Part shown: positions 35,381-44,339 of the stretch, piece after piece
Position numbering within the stretch: the first letter of the stretch is position 1
Layout: the number at the start of each line of letters is the position of its first letter
DNA from: a virus
Lineage: Duplodnaviria > Heunggongvirae > Uroviricota > Caudoviricetes
DNA: 44,339 nt
Virus record (IMG/VR): IMGVR_UViG_2923286960_000001
Reading direction: 5' to 3' (one strand)
The notes under the pieces: model-generated
What the model was told of the DNA's origin: nothing
The model's database searches: none
What the model saw: the letters and a program-made list of their open reading frames with translations, nothing else
Program-made: the position numbers and the translations under genes

Positions 35381-38300
35381 ATGGGTAAAGGCAGCAGTAA
35401 GGGGCATACTCCGCGCGAAGCGAAGGACAACCTGAAGTCCACGCAGTTGCTGAGTGTGATCGATGCCATCAGCGAAGGGCCGATTGAAGGTCCGGTGGAT
35501 GGATTAAAAAGCGTGCTGCTGAACAGTACGCCAGTGCTGGACAGTGAGGGGAATACCAACATCTCCGGCGTCACGGTGGTGTTCCGGGCCGGTGAGCAGG
35601 AGCAGACACCGCCGGAGGGATTTGAATCCTCCGGCTCCGAGACGGTGCTGGGTACGGAAGTGAAATACGACACGCCGATCACCCGGACCATCACGTCGGC
35701 AAACATCGACCGTCTGCGCTTTACCTTCGGCGTGCAGGCACTGGTGGAAACCACCTCAAAGGGGGACAGGAATCCGTCGGAAGTCCGCCTGCTGGTTCAG
35801 ATACAGCGTAATGGTGGCTGGGTGACGGAAAAAGACATCACCATTAAGGGCAAAACCACCTCGCAGTATCTGGCCTCGGTGGTGGTGGGTAACCTGCCGC
35901 CGCGCCCGTTCAATATACGGATGCGCAGGATGACGCCGGACAGCACCACAGACCAGCTGCAGAACAAAACGCTCTGGTCGTCATACACCGAAATCATCGA
36001 TGTGAAACAGTGCTACCCGAACACGGCACTGGTCGGCGTGCAGGTGGACTCGGAGCAGTTCGGCAGCCAGCAGGTGAGCCGTAATTATCATCTGCGCGGG
36101 CGTATTCTGCAGGTGCCGTCGAACTATAACCCGCAGACGCGGCAATACAGCGGTATCTGGGACGGAACGTTTAAGCCAGCATACAGCAACAACATGGCCT
36201 GGTGTCTGTGGGATATGCTGACCCATCCGCGCTACGGCATGGGGAAACGTCTTGGTGCGGCGGATGTGGACAAATGGGCGCTGTATGTCATCGGCCACTA
36301 CTGCGACCAGTCGGTGCCGGACGGTTTTGGCGGCACGGAGCCGCGCATCACCTGTAATGCGTACCTGACCACACAGCGCAAGGCGTGGGATGTGCTCAGT
36401 GATTTCTGCTCGGCGATGCGCTGTATGCCGGTATGGAACGGGCAGACGCTGACGTTCGTGCAGGACCGACCGTCGGATAAGGTGTGGACCTATAACCGCA
36501 GTAATGTGGTGATGCCGGATGATGGTGCGCCGTTCCGCTACAGCTTCAGCGCCCTGAAGGACCGCCATAATGCCGTTGAGGTGAACTGGATTGACCCGAA
36601 TAACGGCTGGGAGACGGCGACAGAGCTTGTGGAGGACACGCAGGCCATTGCCCGTTACGGTCGTAGCGTCACGAAGATGGATGCTTTTGGCTGTACCAGC
36701 CGGGGGCAGGCACACCGCGCCGGGCTGTGGCTGATTAAAACTGAACTGCTGGAGACGCAGACCGTGGATTTCAGCGTGGGTGCTGAAGGGCTTCGCCATG
36801 TACCGGGCGATGTCATTGAAATCTGCGATGATGACTATGCCGGTATCAGCACCGGTGGTCGCGTGCTGGCGGTGAACAGCCAGACCCGGACGCTGACGCT
36901 CGACCGTGAAATCACGCTGCCATCCTCCGGTACCACGCTGATAAGCCTGGTTGACGGAAGTGGTAATCCGGTCAGCGTGGAGGTTCAGTCCGTCACCGAC
37001 GGACTTAAGGTGAAAGTGAACCGGGTTCCTGACGGCGTTGCAGAATACAGTGTGTGGGGGCTGAAGCTGCCGACGTTGCGTCAGCGCCTGTTCCGCTGTG
37101 TGAGTATCCGTGAGAACGATGACGGCACGTATGCCATCACTGCCGTGCAGCATGTACCGGAAAAAGAAGCCATCGTGGATAACGGGGCGCACTTTGACGG
37201 CGACCAGAGCGGCACGGTGAATGGTGTCACGCCGCCAGCGGTGCAGCACCTGACCGCCGAAGTCACCGCAGACAGCGGGGAATATCAGGTGCTGGCGCGC
37301 TGGGACACGCCGAAGGTGGTGAAGGGCGTGAGCTTCCTGCTCCGTCTGACCGTAACAGCGGATGACGGCAGTGAGCGGCTGGTCAGCACGGCCCGGACGA
37401 CGGAAACCACATACCGCTTCACGCAACTGGCGCTGGGGAACTACAGACTGACAGTCCGGGCGGTAAATGCGTGGGGGCAGCAGGGCGATCCGGCGTCGGT
37501 ATCGTTCCGGATTGCCGCACCGGCAGCACCGTCGAGGATTGAGCTGACGCCGGGCTATTTTCAGATAACCGCCACGCCGCATCTTGCGGTTTATGATCCG
37601 ACTGTACAGTTTGAGTTCTGGTTCTCGGAAAAGCGGATTGCGGATATCAGGCAGGTTGAAACCACAGCCCGCTATCTTGGCACGGCGCTGTACTGGATAG
37701 CCGCCAGTATCAATATCAAACCGGGCCATGATTATTATTTTTACGTTCGCAGTGTGAACACCGTCGGCAAATCGACATTCGTGGAGGCTGTCGGTCGGGC
37801 GAGCGATGATGCGGAAGGTTACCTGGATTTTTTCAAAGGCCAGATAACTGAATCCCATCTCGGCAAGGAGCTGCTGGAAAAAGTCGAGCTGACGGAGGAT
37901 AACGCCAGCAAACTGGAGGAGTTTTCGAAAGAGTGGAAGGACGCCAACGATAAATGGAATGCCATGTGGGGCGTCAAAATTGAGCAGACCAAAGACGGCA
38001 AACATTATGTCGCGGGTATTGGCCTCAGCATGGAGGACACGGAAGAAGGCAAGCTGAGCCAGTTTCTGGTTGCCGCTAACCGTATCGCGTTTATTGACCC
38101 GGCAAACGGGAATGAAACGCCGATGTTTGTGGCGCAGGGCAATCAGATATTTATGAACGACGTGTTCCTGAAGCGCCTGACGGCCCCGACCATTACCAGT
38201 GGTGGAAATCCACCGGCATTTTCCCTGACATCAGACGGAAAGCTGACCGCTAAAAATGCGGATATCAGTGGCAGAGTGAATGCGAACGCCGGGACGCTCA

Positions 38301-38794
38301 ACAATGTCACGGTAAATGAAAACTGTACGATTAAGGGCATGCTGGAGGCGACTCAGGTCAGAGGTGACTTCGTTAAAGCTGTATCCAAATCATTCCCGAA
38401 ACAGGCTGGTACGTGGGGTAACACGGAAACACCAAACGGGACGGTTACAGTCACCATCAGCGATGATCATAACTTTGACCGTCAAATCATTATTCCGCCC
38501 ATTATCTTTAACGGAATAGCGTATAGCGATCCGGGAAGTGGTAATAACCCGGGAGGTACAAGATACACGGGTGATGGTTTTGAAGTTCGCAAAAACGGTG
38601 TATTAATCGCATCCAGAGAAACTAAAGGGGCCATTCCCGGTAGCTACAGTGCGGTTATTGATATGCCGAGTGGCAGGGGAAGCGTCACTCTGGAGTTTAA
38701 GGTTTTCCATAAAGGCAATCAGTGGGCAGGTAATATCACCGACTGTACGGTGATTGTGACCAAAAAAGCCGCTTCCGGCATCAGTATTCGTTGA
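35381..38794 (+). CDS. J: central tail fibre / host specificity protein J
   Basis: 1137 aa, lambda gpJ-like from [20 protein letters not shown]; the C-terminal roughly 100 aa (receptor-binding part) look different from lambda J as recalled. Confidence 0.95.
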
Positions 38795-38863: not shown

Positions 38864-39463
38864 ATGCGTAAACTTTATGCCGCCATTTTGTCCGCAGCCA
38901 TTTGTCTGGCCGTATCCGGTGCGCCTGCATGGGCATCTGAACATCAGTTCACGCTGAGCGCGGGGTATCTTCATGCCCGGACCAACGTTCCCGGCAGTGA
39001 TGATCTGAACGGGATTAACGTGAAATACCGTTATGAGTTTACGGATACGCTGGGGCTGGTGACGTCATTCAGCTATGCAGGAGACAAGAATCGCCAGCTG
39101 ACCCGTTACAGCGATACCCGCTGGCATGAAGATTCCGTGCGTAACCGCTGGTTCAGCGTGATGGCGGGGCCGTCTGTGCGCGTGAATGAATGGTTCAGCG
39201 CGTATGCGATGGCGGGTATGGCTTACAGCCGTGTTTCGACTTTTTCCGGGGATTACCTTCGCGTAACTGACAACAAGGGGAAAACGCACGATGTGCTGAC
39301 CGGAAGTGATGACGGTCGCCACAGCAACACGTCTCTGGCGTGGGGGGCTGGCGTGCAGTTTAACCCGACCGAATCCGTGGCCATTGATATTGCTTATGAA
39401 GGCTCCGGCAGTGGTGACTGGCGCACTGACGGTTTCATCGTGGGTGTCGGTTATAAATTCTGA
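38864..39463 (+). CDS. lom: Lom/Ail-family outer-membrane beta-barrel protein
   Basis: 199 aa, signal peptide, C-terminal GVGYKF. Confidence 0.9.
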   Translation: MRKLYAAILSAAICLAVSGAPAWASEHQFTLSAGYLHARTNVPGSDDLNGINVKYRYEFTDTLGLVTSFSYAGDKNRQLTRYSDTRWHEDSVRNRWFSVMAGPSVRVNEWFSAYAMAGMAYSRVSTFSGDYLRVTDNKGKTHDVLTGSDDGRHSNTSLAWGAGVQFNPTESVAIDIAYEGSGSGDWRTDGFIVGVGYKF

Positions 39464-39527: not shown

Positions 39528-41924
39528 ATGGCAGTAAAGATTTCAGGTGTACTGAAAGACGGCACAGGAAAACCGGTACAGAACTGCTCAATCCAGCTGA
39601 AAGCAAAACGTAACAGCACCACGGTTGTGGTAAACACGGTGGCCTCAGAAAATCCGGATGAAGCCGGGCGTTACAGTATGGATGTTGAGTATGGCCAGTA
39701 CAGCGTTATCCTGCTGGTTGAAGGTTTTCCGCCTTCACATGCCGGGACCATCACCGTGTATGAAGATTCTAAGCCGGGGACGCTGAATGATTTTCTCGGT
39801 GCCATGACGGAAGATGATGTCATGCCGGAGGCATTGCGTCGTTTTGAGGAAATGGTGGAAGAAGCGGCACGCAACGCTGAAGCCGCCTCTCAGAGCGCAG
39901 CGGCGGCAAAGAAATCCGAAACTGCAGCGGCATCATCGAAGAACGCGGCGAAAACCTCAGAAACGAATGCAGCTAATAGTGCACAGGCGGCAGCGACCTC
40001 AAAGACTGCATCGGCAAACTCCGCGACAGCAGCCAAAAAATCAGAAACCAACGCGAAAAATAGCGAGACAGCCGCAAAGACGAGCGAAACCAACGCAAAG
40101 TCCAGCCAGACGGCAGCGAAAACCAGCGAAACGAATGCCAAAGCCAGTGAAACTGCGGCAAAAAACAGCCAGGTTGCAGCAGCCCAAAGCGAGAGCGCGG
40201 CAGCCGGTTCTGCGACTTCAGCAGCTGGATCAGCAACTGCTGCGGCTAACAGCCAGAAAGCTGCGAAGACGAGTGAAACTAACGCAAAGTCCAGCCAGAC
40301 GGCAGCGAAGACCAGCGAAACGAATGCCAAAGCCAGCGAAACTGCGGCGAAAAACAGTCAGGATGCAGCAGCCCAAAGCGAGAGTGCTGCAGCTGGTTCT
40401 GCAAGCGCGGCGGCTGCTTCTGCCACTGCATCAGCCAACAGTCAAAAAGCAGCAAAAACCAGTGAAACCAATGCAAAGACAAGCGAGACTGCAGCGGCGA
40501 ACTCGGCGAAAGCATCGGCAGCAAGCCAGACAGCAGCTAAAGCAAGTGAAGACGCAGCCAGAGAGTATGCAAGTCAGGCAGCAGAGCCGTATAAATATGT
40601 CTTACAGCCACTGCCTGATGTGTGGATACCGTTTAACGATTCACTGGATATGATTACGGGCTTTTCGCCGTCATATAAAAAAATTGTTATTGGTGATGAT
40701 GAAATAACGATGCCTGGCGACAAGGTTGTTAAGTTTAAACGCGCATCAACTGCCACATATATCAATAAATCAGGCGTATTTAGTGTTGCTAAAATTGATG
40801 AGCCACGATTTGAAAAAGAAGGTTTATTGATTGAAGGACAGCGCACTAACTATTTTGTTAAATCCAATACTCCCGCTGAATGGACGAGTACCAGCAATAT
40901 CGATAAAACTAATAATGGTGTTGATGAATTTGGTTTTTCATATGCCAAAATGCGAACAAAAGATAATATGACAGGACAATCATCTGCACTTAGTCTGCAT
41001 ACATGCAGTGCATCCCGGGGGATTGATGTTAGTGGCGATAATAAGTATTGCACTGTTTCATGCAGGGTTAAAGCTCCTGATGGTCTTCGTTGTCGTTTGC
41101 GTTTTGAAAAATACGATGGGTCGGTTTATACATTTTTAGGAGATGCTTATTTAACTTTCGGAACTCTGATAATAGAAAAAACTGGCGGGGCAGCCAATAG
41201 AATAGCAGCTACTGCAACTAAAGATCCGGTTACAGGGTGGATTTTCTATGAGGCAACTATAGAAGCTGTTGAAGGTGAAACCTTAATTGGCGCAATGATT
41301 CAGTATGCGCCGAAAAAAGGTGGTATAACTGAAGCGGGAGATTATATTTACCTTGCAACACCACAATTTGAAAACGGCGGATGTGCTTCATCTTTTGTTA
41401 TTACGACAACTGCACCCGCAACCCGCTCCAGTGATATGGTGACGATCCCAACTGAAAATAATATCTATAATAGACCGCTTACGTGTCTTGTCGAGGTTAA
41501 TAGAAATTGGGGCGATATTCCTCCTAATGTAGCACCGCGTATTTTTGATTTTTCTGGTGTGCCACCTATTGAGTCAATTACATACGCTTTTAACACAACT
41601 GAGAAATATTACGGTCAGCTTTATATGCAAACTTATAAAGCGTCGACAAGTACTTACGTTTCTAGTGTGTTTGCTGGTCGAACTGATGTTCGAAAATTCA
41701 TTGGTGGTTTTAATATTTATTCTGATGGTACTAAACGAGTAGTTTCTAACGGTGAGGCTACTAAAACTATGAAAACGGAGTGGACGGGCGTAAAAACACG
41801 GACCTTTATTCGAATTGGAGGTCAAGCCACATCGGGAACTCGTCATCTATTCGGCCATTTGAGAAATCTTCGTCTCTGGCATAAAGAATTAACTGATGCG
41901 CAAATGGGGGAGAGTATTAAATGA
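39528..41924 (+). CDS. stf: side tail fibre protein with internal tandem repeats and a divergent low-GC C-terminal domain
   Basis: N-terminal about 120 aa lambda Stf-like; central Ala/Ser/Thr-rich shaft with KTSETNAK repeats; C-terminal about 440 aa encoded by AT-rich DNA. Confidence 0.85.
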   Translation: MAVKISGVLKDGTGKPVQNCSIQLKAKRNSTTVVVNTVASENPDEAGRYSMDVEYGQYSVILLVEGFPPSHAGTITVYEDSKPGTLNDFLGAMTEDDVMPEALRRFEEMVEEAARNAEAASQSAAAAKKSETAAASSKNAAKTSETNAANSAQAAATSKTASANSATAAKKSETNAKNSETAAKTSETNAKSSQTAAKTSETNAKASETAAKNSQVAAAQSESAAAGSATSAAGSATAAANSQKAAKTSETNAKSSQTAAKTSETNAKASETAAKNSQDAAAQSESAAAGSASAAAASATASANSQKAAKTSETNAKTSETAAANSAKASAASQTAAKASEDAAREYASQAAEPYKYVLQPLPDVWIPFNDSLDMITGFSPSYKKIVIGDDEITMPGDKVVKFKRASTATYINKSGVFSVAKIDEPRFEKEGLLIEGQRTNYFVKSNTPAEWTSTSNIDKTNNGVDEFGFSYAKMRTKDNMTGQSSALSLHTCSASRGIDVSGDNKYCTVSCRVKAPDGLRCRLRFEKYDGSVYTFLGDAYLTFGTLIIEKTGGAANRIAATATKDPVTGWIFYEATIEAVEGETLIGAMIQYAPKKGGITEAGDYIYLATPQFENGGCASSFVITTTAPATRSSDMVTIPTENNIYNRPLTCLVEVNRNWGDIPPNVAPRIFDFSGVPPIESITYAFNTTEKYYGQLYMQTYKASTSTYVSSVFAGRTDVRKFIGGFNIYSDGTKRVVSNGEATKTMKTEWTGVKTRTFIRIGGQATSGTRHLFGHLRNLRLWHKELTDAQMGESIK
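40077..40454 (+). repeat. 2 x 189-bp in-frame tandem repeat within stf
   Basis: Unit at 40077 repeats at 40266 with few substitutions; nested 27-bp sub-repeats. Confidence 0.75.
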
Positions 41925-42202
41925 AAGATTTAACACTCAAATTTGCAGACAGGGCCGACTTTTCGGCCTTTATGGAGAGCATTGGCTATTATGATGACGA
42001 GTCGATGCAGGATGATATTCTTATTGACGTGATAGGTAATGTGTACAAAGAAACCGGAGAACTTACTGAAGATGGCGAGCCGGTATGTGTTAAGGAGGAC
42101 GGATATTTTGTAAATGTGCGCATCATTAATGATTCGCAAATATCGTCATTATTCGATGAACACGCGGTTGCTGTTGAGCATCAACTCCGTAGCTGGATGT
42201 GA
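41921..42202 (+). CDS. hypothetical acidic protein (93 aa) coupled to stf
   Basis: ATG overlaps the stf stop (ATGA); AT-rich. Confidence 0.5.
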   Translation: MKDLTLKFADRADFSAFMESIGYYDDESMQDDILIDVIGNVYKETGELTEDGEPVCVKEDGYFVNVRIINDSQISSLFDEHAVAVEHQLRSWM

Positions 42203-42211
42203 GGAAGAAAA

Positions 42212-42916
42212 ATGGCTACATCGACAGTAATTCCTGATGACATCAAAACGCTAAAGGGAGATGTCAGTAAGGCAAAGGAAGATATTTCCTCAATTAACGT
42301 AAAAGTATCAACGCTTCAGACTGATATGGACAGTGCAAAGCAGGATATCAGTACCAGATACACAAAAACAGAAGTGGATAATAAGCTGAAAAACAAAGTG
42401 GAAGTGAACGATCTGGAAAGTGGTCGTTATGGCGGAGATTTTTACCCGCTGACTGGCCGTGAAGCGTTTTATTTATGGGGATTGGGCACAACTACAGCGG
42501 CGGCAAATCTTTATCTTAATCCTGACCCTGCAATTTCGTCTGTGCTGCGGTCAACATCGTCTATCCGCTATAAACATTCAGTAGAGACGATAGATTCAGA
42601 GCACGCCGATCTCATTTTCAGGATGCGCCCTGTGTGGTACAGGTCGCAATGCGAAAATGACAGGCGTGACTGGGGATTCTATGGATTGATTGCCGAGGAA
42701 GTAGGAGAAATTGCCCCTCAGTTTGTTCACTGGCGACCAGCCAACGAAGATGATGCACCGGAAACCATTTCCAGCAATGGCCTTGTTGCCGAAGGTGTAA
42801 TGTACGAACGTCTGGTTGTTCCACTGATTCACCATATCCAGAAACTGACTGAAAGAGTTGATGAACTTGAGTCAGAATTGAAGTTGTTATCAACTTCCCA
42901 AAGCGATATCGGATAA
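42212..42916 (+). CDS. short protein with C-terminal tail-fibre intramolecular-chaperone (peptidase S74-like) domain
   Basis: GAGGAAG SD; C-terminal pattern SSIRYKHSVETID ... GLIAEEVGEIAPQFV ... YERLVVPLIHHIQKLTERVDELE resembles autocleaving chaperone domains of fibres/tailspikes. Confidence 0.65.
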   Translation: MATSTVIPDDIKTLKGDVSKAKEDISSINVKVSTLQTDMDSAKQDISTRYTKTEVDNKLKNKVEVNDLESGRYGGDFYPLTGREAFYLWGLGTTTAAANLYLNPDPAISSVLRSTSSIRYKHSVETIDSEHADLIFRMRPVWYRSQCENDRRDWGFYGLIAEEVGEIAPQFVHWRPANEDDAPETISSNGLVAEGVMYERLVVPLIHHIQKLTERVDELESELKLLSTSQSDIG

Positions 42917-42926
42917 AGGAGGAGTA

Positions 42927-43220
42927 ATGGATATAACACCTTTTCTTCATGCGCTTTGTGCTGTGGCTGCGCAGGTAATGATTGGTCTTTTTGCCGGAAA
43001 CTGGGTTTACGGGGCGATAGCCGGTTGTACGTTCTTCATTGCGCGTGAACACACCCAGGCAGAATATCGCTGGATTGAAATGTTCGGGCATGGCAAGCGG
43101 ATTAACATGCCGTGGTGGGGCGGTTTTGATCCGCGTGTTTGGGATGTGGCAAGCCTGATAGATTTTGCTGTGCCGGTGGTGGCGTGTCTGCTGGTCTGGC
43201 TGTTGGTTAATCGTGGGTGA
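42927..43220 (+). CDS. small two-TM membrane protein (97 aa)
   Basis: AGGAGG SD 6 nt upstream; two hydrophobic helices flank a Trp-rich loop. Confidence 0.55.
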   Translation: MDITPFLHALCAVAAQVMIGLFAGNWVYGAIAGCTFFIAREHTQAEYRWIEMFGHGKRINMPWWGGFDPRVWDVASLIDFAVPVVACLLVWLLVNRG

Positions 43221-43230
43221 AAAAAGGTGA

Positions 43231-43359
43231 GCTGTATATGCAACGGAGGAAGAAACCCCGTTGCTGGAAGCCTGGAAAAAGTATCGGGTGTTGCTGAACC
43301 GTGTTGATACATCAACTGCACCTGATATTGAGTGGCCTACGAACCCTGTCAGGGAGTAA
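43231..43359 (+). pseudogene. tail fibre assembly gene (tfa) 3' remnant
   Basis: In-frame [39 protein letters not shown] matches the lambda Tfa C-terminus; in-frame stop immediately upstream, no start. Confidence 0.7.
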
Positions 43360-43372
43360 TCATTGGGATTAT

Positions 43373-43422
43373 GCCGCAGCACGTCTTAAGCAAGAACGTG
43401 CTGCGGTTGGATGCTATTTTTT
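43373..43422 (+). terminator. hairpin terminator between the tfa remnant and the convergent methyltransferase
   Basis: GCCGCAGCACG-n13-CGTGCTGCGG followed by a T-run. Confidence 0.4.
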
Positions 43423-44082
43423 CCCTGAAGCGGAAAACATTACTACAGTACCTTGAACCTTGGTTTTAACATTCTCGAAATGCTCTGAGAGTATATGTGT
43501 TAAGCCTTCTTCGGAATCTTTTGTGTTTGAAAAGATGCCTTTCTGATTGTAAATGCGCATCAGTTTTTGACCGAAGCTATTGTGCACAACTCCATCGCCA
43601 AGAATTGTGGCTCCGTATAGAGTTCCATCGTCAGTTAAGGCCTGCGCCGCATTGCGTATTACACAGCTTTTTGTAGATATATTTCCAGGCAGGCAGTGAA
43701 GAAGGTAAAACATGGAAATGGAATCAAATTGACCATGTAACGCCGCGGGATAAGGTTCAAAAACATCATGGCTAATTTTATGTTTAATTTTTGATTCCCC
43801 AGCCCTTGTAGATGCCGCGTTCAGGCTAGCTTCGTTCAAATCCATTAAAGATATCAGACTACTCTCAGGTACGTGAGTAAGGTAAAACCCAGTTCCAACA
43901 CCAATATCCAGATGGTTGTTACCTAAATGTTCCAGAAAGTGTGGAAGAAGGTGTTCCTTTGTAGGACATCCCCATGCAAGCCGATTTGATACTCCCAAAA
44001 CCCACCAGTCATAAAGCTTTAGGGTAAGTGGTGTGTAAATTTTAGCCCCATCATCTGTGTTTTTTTTCATTAATTTCACCAT
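43414..44082 (-). CDS. class I SAM-dependent methyltransferase
   Basis: 222 aa with motif I LDIGVGTGFY and downstream acidic residue; low GC; opposite strand to the tail genes. Confidence 0.75.
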   Translation of the reverse strand: MVKLMKKNTDDGAKIYTPLTLKLYDWWVLGVSNRLAWGCPTKEHLLPHFLEHLGNNHLDIGVGTGFYLTHVPESSLISLMDLNEASLNAASTRAGESKIKHKISHDVFEPYPAALHGQFDSISMFYLLHCLPGNISTKSCVIRNAAQALTDDGTLYGATILGDGVVHNSFGQKLMRIYNQKGIFSNTKDSEEGLTHILSEHFENVKTKVQGTVVMFSASGKK

Positions 44083-44138
44083 GTTATAGTTTTATTTGTG
44101 AATTAAATCAATTATGGCGATGAATTACAAGGGGTTAA

Positions 44139-44339
44139 ATGCTGCCGCAGCATAGCGATATTGAAATAGCCTGGTATGCTTCGATACAGCAGGAGCCGAA
44201 TGGCTGGAAGACCGTCACCACACAGTTCTACATCCAGGAATTCAGTGAGTATATTGCGCCACTGCAGGATGCTGGGAAATCGCAACGGAGGAAGAAAGAT
44301 CGTTGCTGGAGGCATGGAATAAATATCGGGTATTGTTGA
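44139..44339 (+). CDS. tfa-like gene, truncated by the window end and apparently frameshifted
   Basis: ...EYIAPLQDAGKS in one frame and EIATEEERSLLEAWNKYRVLL in the next correspond to lambda Tfa ...[30 protein letters not shown]...; about 8 nt missing around 44270. Confidence 0.45.
   Translation: MLPQHSDIEIAWYASIQQEPNGWKTVTTQFYIQEFSEYIAPLQDAGKSQRRKKDRCWRHGINIGYC

Follow-up and report, generated by a model that had tools for sequence, protein, structure and literature searches.

Cor of phages phi80, N15, HK022 and T1 and Llp of phage T5 inactivate the receptor FhuA. They are exported lipoproteins of the outer membrane, each of which acts on one outer-membrane receptor. Another set of phage proteins brings about O-antigen conversion and is encoded beside tailspike genes; it includes the products of P22 gtrABC, Oac of Sf6 and the Iap polymerase inhibitors of epsilon15 and D3, which are small and hydrophobic. 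P22 gtrABC and Sf6 oac occupy the slot between the tailspike gene and the integrase gene. That so small a protein as DgkA can be a lipid-modifying enzyme is proven by DgkA itself. Imm of T4, gp15 of HK97 and SieA of P22 are small phage proteins of the inner membrane that block DNA entry, gp15 being a moron within the tail gene region, while sieA lies near the tailspike gene (PMC10883804).

We analysed a 97-aa open reading frame, which we call T, as we do its homologues, in a stretch of 44,339 nucleotides (the window). An earlier note on this DNA had likened its product to Cor. T indeed resembles Cor and Llp in being a small phage protein encoded beside receptor-binding genes, but the likeness did not extend further: its N-terminus (MDITPF) has neither a basic n-region nor a signal peptide, it lacks a conserved lipobox cysteine (C11 is found in 44 of 195 members), it has cellular homologues in several phyla, and no homology to Cor or Llp was detected through Pfam and PHROGs. 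Moreover, T is predicted to be an integral protein with three membrane helices and a motif that is probably cytoplasmic, and as such could not plug an outer-membrane receptor.

With Imm, gp15 and SieA, T has in common that it is a small phage-encoded protein of the inner membrane, and by analogy it may share their mode of action. It differs from them in that its predicted periplasmic exposure is limited to a 2-residue turn and a tail of ~4 residues, and in that the conservation of its motif across phyla is much stronger than expected for such proteins. No match to families of the Imm_superinfect, SieA or SieB type was obtained in Pfam (with T or with 60 diverse members of its family) or in PADLOC, in which no family at all was matched, and T matched none of the superinfection-exclusion families in Pfam or PHROGs. 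The resemblance to the O-antigen conversion factors concerns the small size and hydrophobicity, as in Iap, and the tailspike-integrase slot, which is occupied by T in phage Gally. In contrast to these factors, T matched no GtrA, acyltransferase or glycosyltransferase profile (Pfam, NCBIfam), and it has homologues in Sphingomonadales, which are not known to have classical LPS. Phage Kapi1, in which O-antigen conversion has no known cause, was rejected as a functional example: a T homologue is absent from it, and the ORF between its tailspike and integrase genes is an unrelated gene of 34 aa. The small RNA svsR of prophage NC-SV was also considered and found to be irrelevant to T, as it is located in the cI gene. 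By analogy only, T can be compared with DgkA: both are ~100-120 aa long and have three helices in the membrane, and in both a conserved acidic/basic site is placed at the interface with the cytoplasm.

The family itself is already catalogued but uncharacterised, and has no sequence or fold kinship to the known small accessory membrane proteins that phages encode beside receptor-binding genes. T matched phrog_1443 (E = 1.5e-57; residues 1-96 against positions 1-96 of the 97 in the profile), to which PHROGs gives no functional annotation; its remaining PHROG matches (34165 and 9191) are functionally unannotated as well. Its homologue in the jumbo phage ACP1 also matched phrog_1443 (E = 1.6e-16). 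Clustering of the homologues gave 561 groups at 90% identity and 440 at 50%, and every member is a stand-alone protein of 58-146 aa. The name 'hypothetical protein' was found in every source examined, with the exception of a single UniRef label, "Lgt", on an Aeromonas member. This identification was rejected, since alignment of the family with E. coli Lgt by hhalign gave a probability of 0.3% and PF01790 was not matched. Only noise was obtained when T was searched against Pfam, NCBIfam and PADLOC (with otherwise no Pfam match at E <= 1), when the 60 diverse members were searched against Pfam, and when PDB sequences were searched with two profiles of the family; no fold match was found for T. 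The noise included weak matches to the PhoR N-terminal domain (best E = 0.0032, 3 of the 60 members), which we ascribe to transmembrane composition. Taken over Pfam, NCBIfam, PADLOC, PDB and PHROGs, there was no homology link between T and any exclusion or conversion protein, and a literature search for WP_000355612, phrog_1443 and FIG00639861 returned nothing. What is new here for phrog_1443 is its linkage to receptor-binding protein (RBP) genes, its motif, a structural model and its chromosomal relatives.

The T gene and its surroundings in the window

The prophage that carries T is a lambdoid one of E. coli; its tail region, in which T lies, forms the end of the window (Table 1). The reading frame that had been proposed for it, which starts with ATG, was found to be correct. 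Its product is identical to RefSeq WP_000355612.1 (named 'hypothetical protein'), and a 100% identical T was found in several complete E. coli genomes, among them that of NCTC86. A ribosome-binding site is present, as the earlier note had it: the sequence AAGGAGGAG ends 2 nt before the ATG, its AGGAGG core (42917-42922) ending 4 nt before the ATG, and it overlaps by one base the TAA with which the upstream 234-aa ORF stops. Comparison of T with alleles of the E. coli clade gave a dN/dS of 0.16-0.40 and therefore pointed to purifying selection. T is a real protein-coding gene. No promoter was seen upstream of T in the lambdoid contexts in which it was looked for (the window and phage Lambda_ev203), where T follows tightly behind late genes, with a spacer of 10-12 nt. 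This makes expression of T in the lysogen uncertain for these contexts, which counts against a simple role in exclusion.

Table 1. Positions in the window of T, of the segments of its product and of neighbouring features
Feature	Positions	Strand	Basis
J	35381-38794		tail region of prophage
Lom	38864-39463		tail region of prophage
Side tail fibre Stf, 798 aa	39528-41924	+	full-length phrog_1419 match; C-terminal domain matches phrog_5939
93-aa ORF, phrog_1361 (no functional annotation)	41921-42202	+	ORF list, PHROG match
234-aa short tail-fibre protein	42212-42916	+	Pfam PF13884 (E = 4.6e-6); phrog_3299 and phrog_4563 matches
Shine-Dalgarno sequence of T, AAGGAGGAG	42916-42924	+	direct sequence reading
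T, coding sequence, 97 aa	42927-43220	+	ORF list, phrog_1443 match, RefSeq annotation, dN/dS
T helix 1, residues 4-23, with H8 (42948-42950), Q16 and G20	42936-42995	+	AlphaFold2, conservation
T helix 2, hydrophobic part, residues 26-39, after tight G24-N25 turn	43002-43043	+	AlphaFold2, conservation
T helix 2, amphipathic continuation, residues 40-53	43044-43085	+	conservation, hydrophobic moment 1.0
T loop, residues 54-73	43086-43145	+	conservation, K+R counts
T helix 3, residues 74-96, with D79 and P83	43146-43214	+	AlphaFold2 model
Hairpin GCAACGG(N13)CCGTTGC	43240-43266	+	fold energy -22.3 kcal/mol, z = -2.2
3' remnant of tail fibre assembly gene tfa	43240-43359	+	RefSeq pseudogene annotation

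The gene order is J, Lom, Stf, the 93-aa ORF, the 234-aa S74-type fibre and T. The tail-fibre neighbourhood that had been assigned to T was thus confirmed, by the phrog_1419 match over the full length of Stf and by the Peptidase_S74 domain of the 234-aa ORF. A C-terminal domain of the phrog_5939 type, like that of Stf, also precedes T in Comamonas and Chelativorans prophages. In the shaft of Stf (40025-40496 and ~40600), units of 189 bp (2.3 copies) and of 42 bp are repeated in tandem; they encode repeats rich in Ala, Ser, Thr and Lys and have an AT skew of up to 0.66. A subsequent fall in GC content from ~0.55 to ~0.38, the latter in the C-terminal half, suggests that the fibre gene is itself a mosaic with an internal joint.

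The 93-aa ORF overlaps the Stf stop codon by 4 nt. Its family is always found behind phrog_1419-type Stf genes, and the ORF may encode the chaperone that replaces Tfa for this type of fibre. We rejected it as an obligate partner of T because the family was found only in Escherichia. In the 234-aa ORF, the Peptidase_S74 chaperone domain is C-terminal, and a 10-nt spacer separates the ORF from T. At the N-terminus, it aligns with the beginning of phrog_4563, a family of 346-aa 'tail fiber proteins', and in E. ruysiae (L086) and the phage-plasmid pAVS0747-B (L163) its place is taken by alleles of 346 aa. The 234-aa ORF is more than a fragment of a fibre and may be a second, short side fibre.

A terminator had been proposed downstream of T, but what is present there is a hairpin with moderate folding only, located within the 3' remnant of tfa and followed by UGGAAGCC, without a U-run. 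Because the U-tract is absent and a terminator scan of 41500-44339 found none, this hairpin was rejected as a canonical intrinsic terminator. In several lambdoid contexts, T is linked to the start of the tfa remnant: of the sequence 3' of T, ~95 nt recur after T in Lambda_ev203, among them the first ~75 nt of the remnant, and in E. ruysiae the recurring sequence is longer than ~95 nt. The region from 43240 to 44339 consists of gene debris typical of the DLP12 region. Besides the tfa 3' remnant, this right end contains an intact gene for a 222-aa class I SAM methyltransferase (minus strand, phrog_2132), which we take to be ybcY-like, a fragment of dinI and a second, frameshifted fragment of tfa. 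In genomes identical to the window, this debris is followed by ompT, envY and nfrA.

Structural model and conserved motif of T

T had been described as a small membrane protein with two transmembrane segments. The first part of this description held, but the AlphaFold2 model (pLDDT 92, pTM 0.75) contained three hydrophobic helices (residues 4-23, 26-53 and 74-96) rather than two. The N-terminal hydrophobic stretch of ~36 residues is interrupted by G24 (82% conserved), which is followed by N or D at position 25, and this conserved break indicates a helical hairpin, to which a third helix is added.

Conservation was assessed on 195 full-length members from several phyla. Helix 1 carries H8 (99%) and Q16 (85%), G20 being conserved as well. 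The amphipathic continuation of helix 2 begins with the signature R40-E41-x-x-Q44-A45-E46-Y47-R48-W49-I50, in which R40 and E41 are conserved to 99%, Q44 and E46 to 98%, A45 to 97% and R48 to 93%. The loop that follows, G-x-G-K-R58-x-N-M-P62-W-W-G-G-F-D68-x-R-x-W72, is rich in Arg and Trp, with R58 conserved to 93%, P62 to 89% and W72 to 99%, and helix 3 contains D79 (91%) and P83 (99%). Eight positions (H8, R40, E41, Q44, A45, E46, W72 and P83) are therefore conserved to at least 97%, and R48, R58 and D79 to at least 91%.

The side of the protein that comprises the N-terminus, the amphipathic segment and the loop contains on average 5.9 Lys and Arg residues, against 0.7 on the opposite side, and by the positive-inside rule the motif is therefore assigned to the cytoplasm. 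T would thus probably have its conserved polar face towards the cytoplasm, with the loop probably at the cytoplasmic membrane interface. Judging from the helix boundaries, the hairpin and the third helix would bring H8, R40/E41 and D79 to a similar depth in the membrane, on the side of the N-terminus and the central loop. There, they could form a single polar site at the membrane interface together with Q44, E46, R48, R58 and the Trp-rich loop.

In its size (97 aa) and its three hydrophobic helices, T resembles class I holins, and one of the 60 family members gave a weak match to Phage_holin_8 (E = 0.0036). Furthermore, small ORFs or lysis genes are found a few genes away from T in Comamonas and from its remnant in PBM-2. 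It nevertheless seems very improbable to us that T controls the timing of lysis in the manner of a holin or antiholin. The short loop between helices 2 and 3 of class I holins is replaced in T by a conserved polar segment of 34 residues, and of their charged C-terminal tail T has hardly anything (mean of 4 residues, with 0.66 Lys and Arg). T is not located in a lysis cassette either, since in the window it is surrounded by genes for fibres. PBM-2 has an annotated holin of its own, and conserved copies of T are present in chromosomes.

Linkage to receptor-binding protein genes

The argument that had been drawn from the location of T was supported by loci well beyond the window. RBP genes were adjacent to T, or at most 2 genes away, in ~12 lineages of phages and prophages, which differ in tail type and host. 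Among the 80 closest IMG/VR loci, 69 showed the order Stf, 93-aa ORF, S74 fibre, T, and at least 8 showed the order Stf, 93-aa ORF, T, without the S74 fibre. The latter order was also that of phage Lambda_ev203, while the full module (Stf, 93-aa ORF, S74 fibre and T) was present in an SSU5-like phage-plasmid. In the P22-like phage Gally, T stands between the tailspike and the integrase genes. A Comamonas testosteroni prophage has GpJ, a 72-aa ORF and then T, and other Comamonas loci have a phrog_5939 tail protein before T. T was likewise adjacent to an RBP gene or at most 2 genes from it in Chelativorans, Leclercia and Pantoea prophages, in Halomonas and on a contig binned to Dehalococcoidia. 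In Desulfovibrio, T is placed between a tailspike gene and a tail-protein gene, and in the Aeromonas jumbo phage ACP1, a Ferozepurvirus of 236 kb that is probably virulent and has an intact T, a tailspike-like gene is found immediately downstream. We estimate roughly, i.e. not from a computed null, that a random gene would be this close to an RBP gene with a chance of perhaps 15% in a phage of 50-60 genes; compared with this figure, the recurrence of the association is not due to chance. Insertion of accessory genes is favoured at the ends of modules, however, and this alone could explain part of the adjacency.

One clear exception to this adjacency was encountered among the phage contexts. 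The P1-like phage-plasmid p1_000837 (L162 4980-5288) carries a T homologue with 76% identity away from the tail fibre genes, its neighbours being an ead/Ea22-like gene, eaa and a theta-subunit gene, with humD and phd/doc close by.

Since T sits just downstream of fibre genes, in the position usually held by tfa, and is followed in the window by a remnant of tfa, a role like that of Tfa, in the assembly or maturation of the adjacent tail fibre, was considered. We hold this to be highly implausible for a protein with three hydrophobic helices, integral to the membrane, that accompanies unrelated RBP folds and is also found in chromosomes and in a region of a phage-plasmid without a fibre gene nearby. 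Further evidence against it came from two virulent phages, 6947 (a coliphage of 47.7 kb, probably a siphovirus) and PBM-2 (an N4-like podovirus). They have in common a block of 2.6 kb with 99% identity (L004 1652-4289 in 6947; L160 2652-5289 in PBM-2), which contains a decayed T and the greater part of an RBP gene (~860 aa; the PBM-2 annotation is endosialidase). T has suffered a frameshift in this block and has an in-frame stop codon, while the adjacent RBP gene is intact. The decay of T beside an intact RBP gene indicates that it is an accessory gene and not an assembly gene, and the block as a whole indicates that T moves with RBP cassettes and is needed neither by the RBP nor for lytic growth. 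T is, moreover, absent from phages such as Kapi1. On comparative rather than genetic grounds, T thus appears to be dispensable for lytic growth and for virion assembly, as is a moron. The block itself looks as if an RBP cassette had recently passed horizontally between virulent phages that are not related to each other.

T could also be a helper of the lytic cycle, made late together with the RBP, which would stop or alter the synthesis of surface glycans or receptors, or the state of the membrane, so that virions are not trapped on the dying cell or late superinfection is blocked. This would fit with the preceding gene abutting or overlapping T in many loci (gaps of -7 to +18 nt are frequent), with the absence of a promoter or terminator between the late genes and T in lambdoid contexts, with the intact T of the jumbo phage, and with the nature of the neighbouring RBPs, which are often polysaccharide-directed tailspikes or endosialidase-type proteins. 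We nonetheless regard it as improbable, because T has decayed beside an intact RBP gene in the virulent phages 6947 and PBM-2 and because homologues exist in chromosomes. In addition, T is an independent unit in Gally, where an intrinsic terminator and an AT-rich spacer of 190 nt separate it from the tailspike gene, and it is convergent with the tail genes (on the opposite strand) in Silvania prophages. The arrangements in Gally and Silvania also mark T as an accessory gene and not a structural one, as do its place among small accessory genes in the P1-like phage-plasmid and the alignment of different contexts, whose DNA homology starts exactly at the ribosome-binding site of T.

Chromosomal copies and possible functions

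Copies of T were also found in bacterial chromosomes. In Aeromonas species, the gene has a fixed position between those for pirin and RIO1, with the same layout at four loci (L090, L092, L093 and L098). In Leclercia, it is flanked by genes for a peptidase M3 and for Meth_synt_2, and in Sphingomonadales and other alphaproteobacteria it stands beside varying housekeeping genes. No recurrent chromosomal partner was found in alphaproteobacteria, and a conserved chromosomal operon partner was rejected, as the neighbours vary (ligA, methyltransferases, ThiC, COX1, FtsZ and others). From the stand-alone chromosomal copies it follows that T has an activity in the cell for which no phage is needed, and this counts against a simple exclusion role. 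Phage and chromosomal copies were interleaved in a neighbour-joining tree, but T is too short for the tree to settle the direction of transfer.

T was present in 1886 of 5426 complete E. coli genomes, with a median of 2 copies and up to 7 copies in those that carry it. One Escherichia ruysiae contig (L086, L087) contains two lambdoid prophages, each of which has a phrog_1419-type Stf and an allele of T. It follows from these multiple copies and co-resident prophages that T does not stop the acquisition of T-carrying phages, which likewise speaks against simple exclusion.

These observations raise the possibility that T is a moron concerned with the physiology of the host, i.e. a small membrane protein of the envelope or of stress responses (an enzyme, or a protein that binds ions or lipids), which increases the fitness of the lysogen without a role in entry; its adjacency to RBP genes would then reflect the favoured insertion at module ends. 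Besides the stand-alone homologues in conserved non-phage positions, the deep conservation of the motif and the high number of copies per genome, such a role would account for the accessory region of a P1-like phage-plasmid in which T lies away from tail genes, and for the moron-type slots that T holds in P22-like and lambdoid genomes. We think it rather unlikely, since T is found in the middle of structural operons, between tail or virion genes, in Desulfovibrio, Halomonas, the Aeromonas phage 4_4512 and ACP1, positions that are not explained by insertion at the end of an operon. Furthermore, the intact T of the probably virulent jumbo phage cannot serve a lysogen.

The explanation that we favour, although tentatively, is that T is an accessory protein of the inner membrane that changes, from there, the supply of receptors or glycans or the entry of phages. 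What speaks for an accessory role in host recognition or entry, and upholds this part of the idea in the earlier note, is the linkage to RBP genes, together with a moron-like placement and with the fact that T can be dispensed with; and the recurrence of the linkage in siphoviruses, podoviruses, a jumbo phage and phage-plasmids, over several phyla, makes T a strong candidate for such a function. T would be a moron-type protein that travels with RBP cassettes and is not needed to build virions. Its polar motif is near-invariant in sources as distant as phages of Desulfovibrio, prophages of E. coli and chromosomes of Sphingomonas, which suggests a target common to all hosts and makes a phage- or strain-specific partner unlikely. 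Candidates for this target are an ion, the head group of a lipid, a glycan intermediate linked to polyprenyl phosphate and a membrane protein of high conservation. By acting on it, T would alter the supply of surface receptors or the entry of phage DNA, and the benefit would be superinfection exclusion, or a lysogenic conversion that favours the phage with the neighbouring RBP. That T is an exclusion factor specific for certain phages is argued against by its chromosomal homologues, by the near-invariance of the motif across phyla and by the multiple copies per E. coli genome.

A more precise proposal, which we put forward as a doubtful one, is that T represents a widespread family of minimal inner-membrane proteins with three helices, whose near-invariant His/Arg/Glu/Asp site at the cytoplasmic interface binds or modifies a universal membrane lipid or a polyprenyl-phosphate-linked glycan carrier, and that phages with many kinds of tail have it beside their RBP genes so as to reshape the polysaccharide or receptor at the cell surface or to close the cell to entry. 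If true, this would represent a new and very common phage-driven conversion of the envelope, found in about one-third of complete E. coli genomes.

T is ordinary in type. It is distinguished by how common it is, how strongly it is conserved and how broadly it is linked to RBP genes. The number of E. coli genomes in which it is present, often in several copies, contrasts with its naming as a 'hypothetical protein'. If it alters the display of receptors or blocks entry, it bears on the prediction of host range and on phage therapy of E. coli lysogens; if it is a minimal lipid-acting membrane protein, it would be of interest to membrane biochemists. Being small and stand-alone, it is easily tested.

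An arrangement particular to one Leclercia chromosome was also observed. There, a gene for a GNAT acetyltransferase (L104 7491-7934) ends 6 nt before the ORF called for T (7941), the start of which is ~60 nt upstream of the homology with T. The two genes may be co-transcribed, and this arrangement was not present in the other Leclercia loci.
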